A stretch of DNA of 64,000 nt from Christensenella sp. (GTDB taxonomy: Bacteria > Bacillota > Clostridia > Christensenellales > CAG-138). Both the position numbers and the translations under genes were made by a program. A model generated the notes under the pieces. The model was not told the origin of the DNA, did no database searches, and worked only from the letters and a program-made list of their open reading frames with translations. The stretch spans positions 118 to 64,117 of the forward strand of contig JAYFQU010000009.1 of NCBI GenBank assembly GCA_034926785.1, written 5' to 3'. The first letter of the stretch is position 1. Each line of letters opens with the position of its first letter. Positions 7,109 through 59,697 of the stretch are shown in pieces.

Positions 7109-7993
7109 ATGGCACAGACCATCAGCGCGGCGTTGAAAAGACACCTGCTCCTCATGCAGCGCGATGAGATCACCGGCAGCATACTATATGAAAAAATCGC
7201 TGTCCGGCAGAAGGACGACAAGAATAAACAGGCTTTTTTGGAGATTTCCCGCGCGGAGCGGGGACATTATGAAACCTGGAGGGCGTATACCGGCGAGGAT
7301 GCCGCGCCAAACCGGATCCGGATCGCGCTGTTTTTACTGCTCAGCCGCATCCTTGGCGTAACGTTCACGATCAAGTTTTTTGAAAAAGGGGAGGATATCG
7401 GGATCGGCCTGCTGAGGGATATCGAGCAGGAACTGCCCGAGGCGCGGCGCGTGATCGCCGAAGAGGAAGAGCATGAACGGCGCCTGATGGAGATGATTGA
7501 CGAGGAGCGGCTGCACTACGTCGGTTCCATCGTGCTGGGCCTTAACGACGCGCTCGTGGAGCTCACGGGAACCATTGCCGGCCTGACCTTTGCGCTTGCG
7601 AACAACCGCCTCGTTGCGCTCTCCGGCATCATTACGGGCGTATCGGCAACGCTCTCCATGGCGGCCTCCAACTATCTGGCGCAGCGGGCGGAAGGGAACA
7701 GCAAGGCGCTTAAGTCCAGCGCATATACCGGCGTGGCGTATTTGATTACCGTCGTGCTCATCGTGCTGCCCTACCTGTTGCTTCCGAATGGATGGTATCT
7801 CGCCGCGTTCGGGATCATGATCGCGCTCGTGGTGCTCATCATTCTTTCGTTTAACTACTATATCTCCGTGGCGCAGGATCTGCCGTTCTGGAAACGGTTT
7901 GGCGAGATGGTGCTCATCAGCCTCGGCGTTGCGGCGCTCTCGTTCGTCATCGGTCTTGCGGCAAAACGGCTGCTTGGCATCAATGTCGGGTAA
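7109..7993 (+). CDS. VIT1/CCC1-family iron/manganese transporter with an N-terminal ferritin-like domain
   Basis: 294 aa. The N-terminus is a rubrerythrin/ferritin-like helix pair (EITGSILYEKIA..., ERGHYETW, EEEEHERRL). The C-terminus is the VIT membrane domain (LGLNDALVELTG..., SMAASNYLA). Confidence 0.8.
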   Translation: MAQTISAALKRHLLLMQRDEITGSILYEKIAVRQKDDKNKQAFLEISRAERGHYETWRAYTGEDAAPNRIRIALFLLLSRILGVTFTIKFFEKGEDIGIGLLRDIEQELPEARRVIAEEEEHERRLMEMIDEERLHYVGSIVLGLNDALVELTGTIAGLTFALANNRLVALSGIITGVSATLSMAASNYLAQRAEGNSKALKSSAYTGVAYLITVVLIVLPYLLLPNGWYLAAFGIMIALVVLIILSFNYYISVAQDLPFWKRFGEMVLISLGVAALSFVIGLAAKRLLGINVG

Positions 7994-8160
7994 CGGGACA
8001 ACCGCTCTTTGCCTTTCGCCCTCCGGATTTCGAGCGGCAAAGCGCTGCGAAGAAAGCGCCCGACTCCGGGTGATCCGTCACGGTTGCAAAGCCGCCACAG
8101 CCGGAATCTGCTGGGTAAGGGCGCAGGCCTTTACAATCCCAAGATTTTTTTGACAGACTG
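7994..8160 (-). repeat. Intergenic repeat family A, copy 1 (about 167 nt)
   Basis: The reverse complement starts cagtctgtcaaaaaaatcttgggattg and ends ggcaaagagcggttgtcccg. By eye it aligns along its length with the copies at 29744 and 52646. It abuts the VIT stop codon on one side and the hairpin 8161-8197 on the other. Confidence 0.8.
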
Positions 8161-8197
8161 CGGAGAGCACCCCCGATTATACGGGGGGTGCTCTCCG
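8161..8197. terminator. GC-rich stem-loop between convergent genes, with a repeat element on each side
   Basis: cggagagcacccc cgattatac ggggggtgctctccg gives a stem of about 13 bp. No T-tract is left on either strand because the repeats begin at the stem base. Confidence 0.5.
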
Positions 8198-8367
8198 CTC
8201 AGCGCATCGACCAAGTCCCGCGGGCTTTGCCGATGGGTTTTAGTTTGGGTTAAAATAACGCGATTCGCGCCATTTTTTCACAAATTGGGCGAGTGAATCG
8301 CCGAATTTGATGGAACATGGGGGATTTTCGAAATTCTAACCCCTGGCGGGGGTTGTCGATCCACTGG
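8198..8367 (+). repeat. Intergenic repeat family B, copy 1 (about 170 nt)
   Basis: It starts ctcagcgcatcgaccaagtcc. By eye it is roughly 85 percent identical to 45641-45813. It contains the internal hairpins cgcgattcgcg, ggcgagtgaatcgcc and gggggattttcgaaat. Confidence 0.8.
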
Positions 8368-29743: not shown

Positions 29744-29898
29744 CAGTCTGTTAAAAAAGTCCTGGGATTGCTAAAGGTCGCAGCCCTTGACCCATCGGTT
29801 CCGCTTGCGGTGGCTTTGCCACCGTGACGGATCGCCCGGAATCGGGCGGTTTCTTCGCCGCTCTTTGCCGTTTGAGGCCCGGAGGACGAGAGGCAAAG
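29744..29898 (+). repeat. Intergenic repeat family A, copy 2 (the 3' end diverges or is truncated)
   Basis: It starts cagtctgttaaaaaagtcctgggattg directly after the hairpin ggcctttgcc aatca ggcaaaggcc. It aligns with copies 1 and 3 up to ...gagaggcaaag. Confidence 0.75.
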
Positions 29899-45607: not shown

Positions 45608-45640
45608 CGATTCCGCTGACAAGGGCGGGGGATCCCCCCG

Positions 45641-45813
45641 CTCAGCCCATCGACAAAGTCCTGCGGACTCTGCCGATGGGTTTTACTTTGGGTAAAAATG
45701 ACGCGAATCGCGCCATTTTTTCACAAATTCGGCGAATGAATCGCCAAATTTGAAGGAACATGGGGGATTTTCGAAATCCCCCAAACCCCCTACTGGGTTT
45801 GTTGATGCTCTGG
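45641..45813 (+). repeat. Intergenic repeat family B, copy 2 (about 173 nt)
   Basis: It starts ctcagcccatcgacaaagtcc directly after the hairpin gcgggggatccccccgc. It ends ...gtttgttgatgctctgg and is followed by a near-duplicate hairpin gcggggaatcccccccgc plus T7. Confidence 0.8.
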
Positions 45814-45881
45814 GCGGGGAATCCCCCCCGCTTTTTTTGCGCGGAAAATTGTGAAAATATTGTAGAAGCCAGCCTTCCTGC

Positions 45882-49699: not shown

Positions 49700-49988
49700 C
49701 AAACAAAAACCCCCGACCAAATCGATTTGGTCAGGGGCGTAAATTCGATACGCGGTACCACCCTGGTTTGACTGCCGGTTCCCCGAACAATCCTCATTAA
49801 CCTCCAACAAGGCCGTAACCGGTAACGAGGTCAGTCGTCTCGCCCTAACCCAACGGGTTCAGGCGAACAGCTCCGGGATGAGTCATACACACGGTTCGCA
49901 GCACCGGCTCGCACCAACCGCCGGTTCTCTTAAGCTGTAGAGGCCGCGTCTTGTTCCCTTCAGCGCCTTTCAATAAATAATATATGAT
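49700..49988 (-). promoter_or_regulatory. T-box leader, specifier CUC (Leu), with an intrinsic terminator
   Basis: Read on the minus strand. The AGAGA bulge, the distal UGGUGCG loop and the specifier loop UGA-CUC-A (CUC = plus 49880-49882) are present. The T-box sequence is CAGGGUGGUACCGCG (plus 49751-49763). The terminator is ccccugaccaaaucgauuuggucggggg followed by a U-run. Confidence 0.88.
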
Positions 49989-50659: not shown

Positions 50660-51982
50660 ATGCCGCAGGATAAATACGGCTCCGGCCAGGGTGGCCAAAA
50701 CAAAGGTTCCTACAACCGCTCCGGCGATAAGCCGCAGGGTGGTTATAAAAAGACATACGGCGACAAGTCACAGGGTGGTTATAAAAAGACATATGGCGAC
50801 AAGCCGCAGGGCGAGGGCTATCAAGGCAAGCGCTCCTATGGCGACAAGCCGCAGGGAGGCTATGGCAAGCCTTATGGCGAACGCTCCTATGACAAAAAGC
50901 CGTATGGCGACAAGCCACAGGGCGAAGGCTATCAGGGCAAGCGCTCCTATGGCGACAAGCCGCAGGGAGGCTATGGCAAGCCCTCTGGCGAACGTTCCTA
51001 TGACAAAAAGCCGTATGGCGACAAGCCGCAGGGCGAGGGCTATCAAGGAAAGCGTTCTTACGATAAGAAACCGTACGGTGAGAAGTCCTTCGAGAAGAAA
51101 CCCTATGGCAACAAGCCGTATGAGAAGAAGCCGTACGATAAAAAGGCGTCCTATGACGACCGCCGCGCGGAGGAGATGAAGCTGCGCGACCGCCTGCTGG
51201 AGGATGAAGCCCCCGTCGATCAGGACGAGCTTCCATTCCTCATCCTCGGGCGTAACGCCGTCAAAGAGGCCATCAAGAGCGAGCGCAGCATCGACCGCAT
51301 CGAAGTCGTCGGCGACCCGGATGGCTCGCTGCGCGAAATCCTCGCCCTCGCGCGGGAACGCAAGCTCATCGTCCGTGAGGTGGACAAACGCCATCTGGAC
51401 GAGATCTGCCTGCCATTCGGTCACGGCGGCAAGCCGGGCAACCACCAGGGCATCGTGGCTTACGCCGCGGGCGTGGAATATTGCACGGTGCAGGAGATCC
51501 TCGCACTCGCCAGAGAAAAGAAGGAAGATCCGTTCGTGATCGTTCTCGACGGCATCACGGATCCGCATAATCTCGGTTCCATCATCCGCAGCGCGGAGTG
51601 CGCGGGCGCGCATGGCGTCGTCATCGGTAAGCGCAGGAGCGCCTCCGTCACCGCCGCAACGGTCAAGGCCAGCGCTGGTGCGACGGAGCATGTGCTCATC
51701 GCGCGCGTGGTCAACATCCCAGCCGCAATCGACGAACTCAAGCGTGCGAAGCTCTGGGTTGCGGGCGCGGATATGAAGGGGCAGCCGATGGATAAGCAGG
51801 GGCTGAATGGCCCGCTCGCGCTGGTAATCGGCGGCGAGGGAGATGGGCTGAGCAAGCTCGTTGCGGAAAAGTGTGACTTTCTGGTTGCTATCCCGCAGTA
51901 TGGCAAGATCGGCTCACTCAACGCCGGCGTTGCCGCGGGCGTGTTGATGTTTGAAAAGAAAAGACAGGATAAGGCTGAATGA
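50660..51982 (+). CDS. rlmB: 23S rRNA (guanosine-2'-O)-methyltransferase RlmB/YacO (SpoU/TrmH family) with a roughly 185-aa repetitive K/G/Y/P-rich N-terminal extension
   Basis: The C-terminal 250 aa hold the SpoU substrate-binding and methylase domains (LDGITDPHNLGSIIRSAECAGAHGV, LVIGGEGDGLS, IPQYGKIGSLNAGVAAGV). The N-terminus consists of GDKPQG.GY..K.YG repeats. Confidence 0.8.
   Translation: MPQDKYGSGQGGQNKGSYNRSGDKPQGGYKKTYGDKSQGGYKKTYGDKPQGEGYQGKRSYGDKPQGGYGKPYGERSYDKKPYGDKPQGEGYQGKRSYGDKPQGGYGKPSGERSYDKKPYGDKPQGEGYQGKRSYDKKPYGEKSFEKKPYGNKPYEKKPYDKKASYDDRRAEEMKLRDRLLEDEAPVDQDELPFLILGRNAVKEAIKSERSIDRIEVVGDPDGSLREILALARERKLIVREVDKRHLDEICLPFGHGGKPGNHQGIVAYAAGVEYCTVQEILALAREKKEDPFVIVLDGITDPHNLGSIIRSAECAGAHGVVIGKRRSASVTAATVKASAGATEHVLIARVVNIPAAIDELKRAKLWVAGADMKGQPMDKQGLNGPLALVIGGEGDGLSKLVAEKCDFLVAIPQYGKIGSLNAGVAAGVLMFEKKRQDKAE
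50795..51075 (+). repeat. In-frame tandem repeat, 111-nt (37-codon) unit, about 2.5 copies, inside rlmB
   Basis: The unit encodes GDKPQGEGYQGKRSYGDKPQGGYGKPYGERSYDKKPY. It is repeated at 50795 and 50906 with few substitutions, and a third partial unit follows. Confidence 0.7.
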
Positions 51983-52593
51983 AATCATATGATTCCCTGA
52001 CCGACGAGGAACTGCTTCGCCTGCATCGCGCGGGCGACGAGCGCGCGGAGGAGACGCTCTATGCGCGCTACAAGCAGATTGTGCGCAGCAAGGCGCGCAC
52101 CTATTTTCTCGTTGGTGCGGATCATGAGGACATCATTCAGGAGGGCATGATCGGGCTGTATAAGGCCGTGATGGACTATCAGTTCGACAGACCCGCTTCG
52201 TTTCGCGGCTTTGCGGAGCTCTGCATCACGCGGCAGATCATCACCGCGATCAAGAGCGCAACGCGCAAAAAGCATCTGCCGCTGAACACCTATATCTCCT
52301 TCAATCGCCCCACCTACGAGGGGGAAAACGAGCGTCCGCTGATCGACGTGCTCACCAGCACGCGCATCAGCGACCCGGAGGAGGTGCTCATCGGGCGCGA
52401 GAACTATGCGGCGGTTGCGGATAGCATTGAGCACTCGCTGAGCAAGCTGGAGCATAACGCGCTGGGGCTCTATCTCTACGGATACAGCTATCAACAGATT
52501 GCGGATATGCTGCAAATCACCACCAAAAGTGTGGATAACGCGATTCAGCGAGTGAAAAAAAAGCTGGAGACAAGGCTGAAAGAGCTGGAGTAA
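51979..52593 (+). CDS. sigH: RNA polymerase sigma factor SigH (sporulation/stationary-phase sigma-70 family)
   Basis: EDIIQEGMIGLYKAVMDYQFDRPASFRGFAELCITRQIITAIKSATRKKHLPLN closely resembles Bacillus SigH region 2-3. The gene order mrnC-rlmB-sigH supports the call. Confidence 0.8.
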   Translation: MKSYDSLTDEELLRLHRAGDERAEETLYARYKQIVRSKARTYFLVGADHEDIIQEGMIGLYKAVMDYQFDRPASFRGFAELCITRQIITAIKSATRKKHLPLNTYISFNRPTYEGENERPLIDVLTSTRISDPEEVLIGRENYAAVADSIEHSLSKLEHNALGLYLYGYSYQQIADMLQITTKSVDNAIQRVKKKLETRLKELE

Positions 52594-52622
52594 GACCAGG
52601 CGGCAACCCTTAAAGCATAGAA

Positions 52623-52645
52623 AAAAGGATGGCGGCCCATCCTTT
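52623..52645. terminator. Terminator hairpin after sigH, copy 1 of a 23-nt direct duplication
   Basis: aaaaggatggcggcccatccttt (stem ggatgg / ccatcc). An identical 23-mer recurs at 52840-52862, where it runs into a longer T-tract. Confidence 0.6.
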
Positions 52646-52839
52646 CAGTCTGTCAAAAAAGTCCCGGGATTGTTAAGGGCCGTAGTCCTTAACCCATCGA
52701 TTCCGGCTGCGGTGGCTTAGCCGCCGCGACGGATCGCCCGGAGTCGGGCGATTTCTTCACAGCTCTTTGCCGTTCGGAGTCCGGAGAACGAGAGGCAAAG
52801 AACGGTTGTCCCGTCAAAAAACTCGTTTTTTGACGGCCT
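52646..52839 (+). repeat. Intergenic repeat family A, copy 3 (about 168-nt core plus a 3' hairpin)
   Basis: It starts cagtctgtcaaaaaagtcccgggattg. The core ends ggcaaagaacggttgtcccg at 52813, followed by the perfect hairpin ccgtcaaaaaa ctcg ttttttgacgg. It is bracketed by the 23-nt duplication. Confidence 0.8.
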
Positions 52840-52880
52840 AAAAGGATGGCGGCCCATCCTTTTTTTGTATCGCAAAATTA

Positions 52881-53984
52881 TCAGTCGATGTAATATAGCG
52901 GGTTGTAGGGGATGCCGTCCACGATGACCTCATAATGAAACGTTGCTTTGTCTCCGTCTTCATCCTCGGCCAGGGTGCCGATCTTATCTCCCTGAAATAC
53001 GCGCTGGTTGAGTTCCACCTGTACATCCTTCAGGTGCGTCAGCCGCGAGACAAACCCGTTGCCGTGGTCAATATCCACCACGTAGCCGTATGCCCCGCGC
53101 TCTTTGCTGTATATCACAACACCCTCGCCAGGTGCGACGATATTCGTGCCCGGCACGTTCATGATGTTTAGCCCGTAGTTCATCTTCCCATTGGTGTAAC
53201 CAAAGTATCCGGTCAGCTGTCCGCGCATCGGGTAGCCGAGCTTCAGCGTGCCCTTGCTCTTTCCCTCCGGCCCTTCGAGCCGATCCGGCGCGCCGGATGG
53301 ATCCTTTTTCGCATAGGTGCCCGTGCGCAGAATGGTCGCGCGCGCCTCGCGCAGGGTCGTTGTCAATGGTGCGCCCGTCTCCAGCAGAACGCCGGCGCGA
53401 TAGACCGCCCTTACGCTGGTCTCGGTTTCCGCGCCCGTGCCGAGCTGGGTGATAATGCGCTCGCCCTTGGGCAGTGCGCCCTCCTCGGAGGAGGAGATTT
53501 GCGGGCTTTCCCTGCTGACCTGTGTGCGCAGCGTTGTGACCCGAATTGGCACCAGCGTCGGATTTGTGGAGAGCATCTCCAGCGCTTCGCTCGCGTCCAG
53601 CGGCTTGATATAGGGATCGCCGGGAGTGAGAATCAACTCGCAGTCAAACCGCGCGGAGAGAAATTTCTCCCCTTCCGGCGCGGTTGTACTGCTCAAATAC
53701 TCCCATAACATCTGCTTGGCGGCGAGCTCGGAGCTAAGCGTCATCAAAGGGACCCGGTCAACCAGAAGCGTGACGGTGTTTTGGTAGGAAACCGGTTCCA
53801 GCGTTGGCGCGGGGGTGGGTTGAATTGTATCGACGCTGACCATTTCGGCCGGCGCCTCCTCCAGCATCACCGGGCCAGTCTGCGGGCTGGGTCTGGCGGC
53901 GCGGAGTGCGCCGATCACGCCGAGCGAGAGCAGAACGCCCGCCGCTACAAAGAGAAAGATGCGGTTCAGGAACTTTTTATCCAC
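52881..53984 (-). CDS. M23/LytM-domain protein with apparently degenerate zinc-binding motifs, membrane-anchored
   Basis: N-terminal TM helix. The C-terminal LytM fold is recognisable (VAPGEGVVIYS..., YGYVVDIDHGNGFVSRLTHL, GDKIGTL). The HxxxD position reads YGLNIM, and HLHFE reads TFHYE. Confidence 0.7.
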   Translation of the reverse strand: MDKKFLNRIFLFVAAGVLLSLGVIGALRAARPSPQTGPVMLEEAPAEMVSVDTIQPTPAPTLEPVSYQNTVTLLVDRVPLMTLSSELAAKQMLWEYLSSTTAPEGEKFLSARFDCELILTPGDPYIKPLDASEALEMLSTNPTLVPIRVTTLRTQVSRESPQISSSEEGALPKGERIITQLGTGAETETSVRAVYRAGVLLETGAPLTTTLREARATILRTGTYAKKDPSGAPDRLEGPEGKSKGTLKLGYPMRGQLTGYFGYTNGKMNYGLNIMNVPGTNIVAPGEGVVIYSKERGAYGYVVDIDHGNGFVSRLTHLKDVQVELNQRVFQGDKIGTLAEDEDGDKATFHYEVIVDGIPYNPLYYID

Positions 53985-59473: not shown

Positions 59474-59697
59474 ACAACCAAATAGCTGAATCCTTCGCGT
59501 TGCGGCGCGGGGGAGCGGGAGAACCAATTTATTGGGGTGAATCCGGTGGGCACCATCGGTAGGACAGCTTTTCGTCCGAACCCGTCAGCTAATCTCGTAA
59601 GCGTAGAAAGCAGAGTTTTTCAACGTCTATTTCGCATCTGAAAAACCGATGATGTCCTTTTTGCGCTTGCAGTCTCTGCGGGCGCATGTTTTTTTGC
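59474..59697 (+). promoter_or_regulatory. ydaO-type (c-di-AMP) riboswitch with a terminator expression platform
   Basis: Pseudo-symmetric conserved blocks are present: GAAUCC...GCGGGGGAGC...ACCAA...GGGGUGAAUCC...CCGAACCCGUCAGCUAAUCUCGUAAGCGU. They match the ydaO motif as I recall it from B. subtilis. An 11-bp terminator follows (tgcgcttgcag tct ctgcgggcgca, 59662-59686) plus a T-run. Confidence 0.78.

Follow-up and report, generated by a model that had tools for sequence, protein, structure and literature searches.

In staphylococci, IS1272 and TnSha1, two members of the IS1182 family, insert into hairpins, several of which were confirmed as terminators by RNA-seq, and they do so with no specificity for primary sequence (PMC4923244). 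A review cited in the same paper is quoted there for the targeting of palindromes by some IS1182 members. IS1272 has been reported to delete part of the stem-loop and to leave no duplication (PMC4923244, PMC5678879). The duplication of inverted repeats is named in the title of the description of IS1630, an IS30-family element of Mycoplasma fermentans (Calcutt, Lavrrar & Wise 1999, J Bacteriol 181:7597), and the passage on this element in PMC3317919 recounts it and gives duplications of 16, 23, 25, and 26 bp in strain M64.

Our data concern a short repeat, family A, in the window, that is, the whole stretch of 64,000 nucleotides that was analyzed (C50:118-64117), which belongs to a 2.47-Mb MAG that is 94% complete and consists of 64 contigs. 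One copy lies between sigH and a convergent gene and is bordered on both sides by the same terminator hairpin. The locus comprises the following features:

51979-52593, + strand: sigH (sporulation sigma factor SigH), a 204-aa ORF (NF006148, 282.6 bits, cut-off 208)
52623-52645: left copy of the duplicated terminator hairpin, stem-loop AAAGGATGG-CGGC-CCATCCTTT
52646-52839, + strand: family A element, a 194-nt non-coding putative MITE (possibly 195 nt if 52840 is included)
52646-52661, + strand: left terminal inverted repeat CAGTCTGTCAAAAAAG
52811-52839, + strand: right terminal hairpin CCGTCAAAAAA-CTCG-TTTTTTGACGG (perfect, 52811-52836), then CCT
52840-52862: right hairpin copy, continuous with the T-tract T7 at 52860-52866
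52881-53984, - strand: gene with a C-terminal M23-type peptidase domain, convergent with sigH

An earlier note on this DNA had described an identical 23-mer at both hairpin positions, and the sequence bears this out: AAAAGGATGGCGGCCCATCCTTT has two exact + strand copies in the window and no more even when up to 3 mismatches are allowed, and such a pair arose in 0 of 100 shuffles. The 194 nt and the perfect terminal hairpin between the 23-mers are also as described there. The terminal inverted repeats, which the note called short, are real and longer than claimed, with CAGTCTGTCAAAAAAG on the left matched by the right-end reverse complement AGGCCGTCAAAAAAC; the right repeat is made of the 3' arm of the terminal hairpin plus CCT (reverse complement AGGCCGTCAAAAAA). 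As to the exact border, most other copies of family A have the element end GGCCTC, with the duplication beginning one base further on. Because in most of these copies the end has the form GGCCTN, with one base, usually C, between GGCCT and the right repeat, the element at sigH/M23 probably ends in GGCCTA at 52840, and the true duplication here is probably the 22-nt perfect palindrome AAAGGATGG-CGGC-CCATCCTTT at 52624-52645 and 52841-52862. The element carries no transposase gene, its only overlap with coding content is a spurious 52-aa reverse-strand ORF, and no promoter-like site was predicted inside it.

With respect to termination, the flanks joined without the element read GAAAAAAGGATGGCGGCCCATCCTTTTTTTG, that is, A6, the stem-loop, and T7 between the two convergent genes. 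This junction, together with the single hairpin found in the sister species described below, agrees with the proposal of the earlier note that removal of the element and one hairpin copy restores a bidirectional terminator. In the occupied locus, the left copy has kept its upstream A-tract (52621-52626) and lost its T-tract; read on the - strand, it is a hairpin followed by TTTTTT, which is a complete terminator for the M23 gene beyond read-through of the element. On the + strand, a terminator-like site lies at 52840-52863; of the two copies, the distal one alone is scored as a terminator on this strand, and the right hairpin copy is thus the sole complete + strand terminator remaining for sigH. 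The M23 gene itself has weak DipM, MepM, SpoIIQ, and NlpD matches over residues ~245-366, all far under the curated cut-offs.

Elsewhere in the window we noted an RlmB-type 23S rRNA methyltransferase gene at 50660-51982 (TIGR00186, 208 bits), with a ~190-aa low-complexity N-terminal extension of tandem GYGKPYGDKPQGE-like repeats that is unusual for this enzyme. Two regulatory RNAs reach the Rfam gathering threshold, namely, a T-box leader at 49730-49972 on the - strand (118 bits) and a c-di-AMP (ydaO-type) riboswitch at 59474-59618 on the + strand (95 bits).

The earlier note had proposed that the empty site be sought in relatives, and we compared the joined flanks with 40 same-genus genomes. 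The sigH-M23 locus is present in 36 of them, with 68-91% DNA identity to the window, and in the eight sister-species loci listed the spacer measures 39-90 nt and holds one terminator-like hairpin with a T-tract. An orthologous stem of the GGATGGC type is found in 6 of these 8 loci (e.g., caggatggcaaacgccatcctgttttt and acaggatggcacgcgccatcctgttttt), and the family A element is absent from the spacer in all eight. We read the single hairpin in the sister spacers as the ancestral, unoccupied state at the species level. Exact-pattern scans of metagenome contigs, among which this species is not represented, gave neither the empty junction (0) nor the occupied junction (0).

A blastn search of the whole assembly with the family A element gave about 120 matches, of which 72 are nearly full-length copies. 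For each full copy, the 50 nt on its left were aligned to the 50 nt on its right, and a score of at least 24 was taken as a strong direct repeat. In 51 of the 72 full copies, such a direct repeat adjoins both element ends and folds as a GC-rich hairpin, a score reached by only 1 of 500 random positions with equal spacing. These duplications have a different sequence at each locus; they span 16-34 nt, most often 23 nt, which supplies the catalogue of duplication lengths that the earlier note had called for. The targeted hairpins have perfect stems with a median of 9 bp, mostly closed by 4-nt loops, compared with a median stem of 6 bp in a crude genome-wide scan of terminator-like hairpins. With respect to A- and T-tracts, orientation shows no bias: an A-run stands on the left in 21 of 51 copies, and in 18 of 51 there is a T-run on the right. 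What is duplicated is the palindrome itself; the duplication is symmetric, its length follows that of the target, and the element inserts in either orientation.

Some copies depart from this pattern. No recognizable duplication was found around 21 of the 72 copies, which are mostly more diverged or carry two different hairpins at their ends. In two copies, C10:4102 and C15:49373, the flanking hairpins are reciprocally exchanged, a pattern that homologous recombination between two elements, each once with its own duplication, would leave. Two further family A copies in the window belong here:

29745-29898, + strand: 3'-truncated family A copy, directly after the hairpin cggcctttgcc-aatcag-gcaaaggccg
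7993-8160, - strand: family A copy without the terminal hairpin

In the first of these, the break falls at the junction of the internal GAGAGGCAAAG with the 3' arm (gcaaaggccg) of the flanking hairpin, which points to a microhomology deletion that took the element end and most of the distal hairpin copy; the lost segment appears to have lain between the internal GGCAAAG and the 3' arm of that distal copy. The second shares the hairpin at 8161-8197 with a + strand family B copy that starts at 8198, and we interpret the arrangement at 7993-8367 as nested or successive insertions at one terminator. At three other loci (C36:2677, C6:10849, and C32:355), the hairpins flanking family A have the same stems and reverse-complemented loops, e.g., GGCCAATACC versus GGTATTGGCC. 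Such loops are not predicted by simple gap filling; inversion of the loop via recombination or template switching between the stem arms is possible.

A second family with the same habit, family B, was found through a recurring flank motif and has about 68 right ends in the genome. Its representative in the window is as follows:

45643-45812, + strand: family B element, 170 nt, CAGCCCATCGACAAAG...TTGTTGATGCTCTG, with terminator hairpin copies at ~45624-45642 and 45813-45832

Hairpin duplications flank 37 of the 47 full family B copies, and the earlier note's claim that insertion duplicates an entire stem-loop therefore holds for both families, while the possibility it had raised that the duplication is unique to the sigH/M23 locus does not. 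Because family B copies have a median identity of 97%, compared with ~85-94% for family A copies, we take family B to be the younger family. The ends of both families follow one pattern, CAGnCnnTCrAnAAAG, and a hairpin duplication also borders a chimera that combines a family B 5' end with a family A 3' end; the ends appear interchangeable. When the genome was scanned for exact direct repeats that form hairpins and lie 60-6000 bp apart, peaks appeared only at ~170 and ~194 nt, in addition to A+B composites. A pair of family B copies on C58, separated by 3.3 kb, was considered as a composite element and rejected, the sequence between them consisting of ordinary genes. Many contigs stop ~118-124 nt into a family B copy, as does the contig of the window at its right end (C50:64165), and near-identical family B copies are a main cause of assembly breaks in this MAG.

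Since IS1272 and TnSha1 are reported to insert into terminator hairpins, we searched the genus with PF13751 for a transposase of the IS1182 family that could serve these repeats. Full-length ISs with matching tips were found in sister genomes: the L031 IS starts with CAGTCTGTCAAAAAAGTCCC, and family A agrees with this left end at every one of its first 20 nt, while the ISs at L033, L034, and L040 start and end with CAGCCCATCGWCAAAC, as family B does. The right end of a MITE subfamily in the sister genome G004, CGACAGCCTG, matches the IS-type right end as well. The ISs also share the target habit, since L034 has an exact hairpin duplication on both sides (AATCCCCCGTATTAACGGGGGATT) and the copies of GAGCGGGAACCCCGCTC on the two sides of L032 are alike except for one 1-nt indel. 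Their transposases score 442.7 and 379 bits against NF033551 (IS1182 family; cut-off 270) and match PF05598, PF13751, and PF01609 (DUF772, DDE_Tnp_1_6, and DDE_Tnp_1).

The association is also found across Clostridia. With the L031 transposase as query and one genome per species, 80 related loci were obtained from Oscillospiraceae, Caproiciproducens, Butyricicoccus porcorum, Pseudoflavonifractor, Syntrophomonadaceae, and others, and at 37 of the 70 loci whose flanks were usable, a direct repeat that forms a hairpin lies beside CAGCCTGTCGAAAAAG...TTCGACAGGCTG ends. Where the flanks of related ISs differ, both are usually still hairpins. The strictest definition of the ends leaves 18 ISs of 1472-1573 bp with CAG...CTG inverted repeats and exact duplications of 21-36 nt, all 18 of them symmetric about a dyad; in 15 the stem spans the duplication from its first to its last base, and in the other 3 one base at each end is unpaired. 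Members of the IS1182 family measure ~1.3-1.95 kb and have terminal inverted repeats, a description that these elements fit, and the ISfinder duplication range for the family is 0-60 bp. Our literature search found no review that gives such a range. The earlier note had called the duplication unusually long for classical transposition, which is true, but it has precedents in IS1630 (16-26 bp) and in these related IS1182-family ISs.

The assembly that carries the repeat contains no intact IS1182-family transposase. A PF13751 search gave 0 matches, a self-megablast found no repeats above 544 bp, and a strict inverted-repeat regex for a long autonomous element found nothing in this genome. The sole trace detected by tblastn is a 57-aa N-terminal remnant (C16:23578-23748, - strand) within C16:23438-23748, which holds the first 57 transposase codons of a family-B-type IS, with 82% identity to L034, fused at CCATCGAT to a 3' segment (~145 nt) of a family A element, after which the 3' end of the IS follows. 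The MITEs may be stranded in this genome, or the IS may be unassembled, as could happen in a 94%-complete MAG of 64 contigs that often end inside family B. Across the genus, too, MITE-rich genomes are mostly without an assembled transposase.

Of the features by which MITEs are recognized, family A has inverted repeats shared with the ISs, a short length without a transposase, many copies with locus-specific duplications, and the target habit of the ISs. An autonomous partner was not found in the same genome, whose incomplete assembly leaves its absence unproven. Only the outer ~12-20 nt match the ISs, and the interior is no obvious IS deletion derivative. Because its tips match IS1182-family ISs that also carry symmetric whole-hairpin duplications, family A is very probably a non-autonomous MITE of a hairpin-targeting IS1182 subgroup that is mobilized in trans, and in which the target palindrome sets the length of the duplication. 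The view of the earlier note that these repeats are, or once were, mobile is supported by their copy number, their locus-specific duplications, and their IS1182-type tips.

These data suggest a model for the insertion of family A. First, a DDE transposase of the IS1182 family, supplied in trans, would move the element to a DNA palindrome or hairpin, in practice mostly an intrinsic terminator, without recognizing any target sequence. The palindrome would be captured as an extruded cruciform, which is a four-way junction, or as a hairpin of single-stranded DNA. In a cruciform, the phosphates at the 5' bases of both hairpins would be close to each other and two-fold related, as they are in an ordinary short stagger. 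Both element ends would then be joined to both strands at the two stem bases, and gap repair would copy the whole stem-loop, leaving a target-site duplication that is the hairpin itself, 16-36 nt in length. Speculatively, IS1272 could attack the same structure from its other side, with the reported deletion of the stem-loop as the outcome. With terminator copies on both sides, each insertion could create a safe harbor of its own, which could allow ~170 insertions in a 2.5-Mb genome. We put forward only tentatively, and without considering it the probable outcome, the full version of this model, in which a structure-specific integrase recognizes a four-way junction or folded single strand, the target sets the stagger, the element makes its own terminator safe harbor, and the folded element strand has a role in transposition or as a 3'-UTR module.

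The interior of the element bears on which of the two target forms is used. Family A folds far better than its shuffles, the z-score being -5.6 for the + strand and -3.8 for the - strand. We aligned 16 copies from seven species-level genomes, including the diverged G004 subfamily, which is also flanked by hairpin duplications. In this alignment, 94% of cells pair, helix 6 (the right terminal hairpin) is 96% paired, and five interior stem-loops are kept with compensatory changes across species. Both sides have changed in 15 of 47 pairs; shuffles gave 8.7 +/- 1.9 such pairs, with none of 500 reaching this number, and slid controls gave 4-10. As a signal of a fold, these changes are only suggestive, since mutation templated by the palindrome can mimic them. 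Because G-U cells outnumber A-C cells (43 versus 16, counted from the pair types), the + strand as written is hinted to be the strand that folds. The conserved fold could mean that a folded single strand is needed in transposition, that the element acts as a 3'-UTR RNA module, or that palindrome-templated mutation has been at work.

The interior stem-loops and the pairing bias, which suggests that one strand folds, are what an IS1182-type element that reads its hairpin on single-stranded DNA might leave, on the lagging-strand template or on the non-template strand of the transcription bubble at terminators. One strand would be joined first, and the duplication would come from replication or repair. 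In ISs and MITEs alike, the termini fold into hairpins of which the inverted repeat is a part, and terminators are frequent sites of strand opening, as this scenario would have it. We nevertheless consider it rather unlikely. In the IS4/IS5 superfamily, DDE transposases normally work on duplex DNA, and the simplest explanation for the strict symmetry of the duplications, and for insertion in either orientation, is a two-fold symmetric attack on a duplex junction.

Mobilization by an IS30-family transposase of the IS1630 type is far less probable, even though the behavior reported for IS1630 in the relevant passage of PMC3317919, with duplications of 16-26 bp, is identical and a few sister genomes contain IS30-family transposases. 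This reading calls for an IS30-family element with CAGnCnGTCAAA ends and is disfavored, since the MITE tips match IS1182-family ISs instead. The candidate partner, L043 in G014, which is the sole full-length IS30-family copy among the 40 genus genomes, was rejected for its unrelated inverted repeats (GTGAATTGTCAAACTAAGTGCAAC); its flanks have a short repeat of ~6 bp and no hairpin duplication. The genome that carries family A has no match to the IS30 family (NF033563).

RNA-mediated insertion is more improbable still. Group IIC introns use terminator hairpins as part of their target, and the element is highly structured, as would be a small retroelement or group IIC intron derivative homing to the 3' side of terminator stem-loops. 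However, a group II ribozyme is far larger than 194 nt, introns do not produce a duplication when they home, the ends of the element match the inverted repeats of a DDE transposon, and family A inserts in both orientations relative to the T-tract. Rfam gave no match on family A at the gathering threshold in the window or at E<=1 in the segment 52560-52920. Finally, the origin of the paired hairpins without any transposition, by local duplication or replication slippage or as part of the repeat unit, has next to no probability and is already refuted by the locus-specific duplications, with different hairpins around the same element at every locus, one hairpin at sigH-M23 in relatives, and the same structure around 1.5-kb transposase-encoding ISs in many genera, even if palindromes are prone to replication errors and a few loci have loop-inverted hairpin copies.

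Returning to insertion of a MITE by an IS1182-type transposase at a terminator hairpin, the consequences at sigH/M23 can be outlined. Transcripts of sigH would encounter, in this order, a hairpin that lacks a U-tract, the element, and a complete terminator, and transcripts of the M23 gene would meet the mirror image. Termination is probably kept at this locus, with the complete terminator of each gene moved to the far side of the element, and both 3' UTRs would gain the element in opposite senses. Insertions may be tolerated at ~170 sites because termination is preserved by duplication of the terminator. The combination of a duplicated terminator with a structured 3'-UTR module of ~190 nt suggests that this manner of insertion costs little and that it may be a source of variation among 3' UTRs.

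Families A and B together occupy roughly 170 intergenic sites, mostly terminator-like hairpins, in this 2.47-Mb genome, which is of a gut or anaerobe Clostridia type. As they fill so many sites and break the assembly at many contig ends, these repeats will keep turning up in annotation, terminator prediction, and MAG assembly. A duplication length that is set by the secondary structure of the target implies structure-guided target capture by a DDE transposase, and we know of no biochemical study of such capture by an IS1182-family transposase.

Among known systems, the bacterial MITEs (MITEAba12, Correia, RUP, and Nezha) resemble family A in being short, non-coding, high-copy, and intergenic, with inverted-repeat ends and a transposase supplied in trans. 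In classical MITEs, however, the duplication is short, fixed, and set by the enzyme, whereas here it measures 16-34 nt and equals the target palindrome, and the family A interior, unlike theirs, keeps stem-loops with compensatory changes. A whole-repeat duplication also arises in CRISPR adaptation, where the Cas1-Cas2 integrase attacks both ends of a (semi-)palindromic CRISPR repeat, so that the whole ~30-bp repeat is duplicated. The likeness of family A to Cas1-Cas2 spacer integration and to casposons, the subject of PMC5137440, is by analogy only: the Cas1-Cas2 enzyme is unrelated, its target is sequence specific, its duplication length is fixed, and there are no cas genes here.

IS1630 shares with family A the duplication of inverted repeats, which here spans 16-34 nt, going by the title and the passage cited above. 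In the same sources it is an autonomous element of 1.2-1.4 kb with an IS30 transposase, and its ends are not known from them to resemble the MITE ends. With IS1272 and TnSha1, family A shares the hairpin target and, through the full-length ISs with the same tips, the IS1182-family transposase. Unlike with IS1272, the whole hairpin is symmetrically duplicated and stands intact and twice at sigH/M23 and at most other loci, and the element in the window is a 194-nt derivative without a transposase, whose interior is unrelated to the IS. Rather than a new principle or a new kind of element, family A is a good example of a habit that has precedents in the duplication by IS1630 and the terminator targeting by IS1272.
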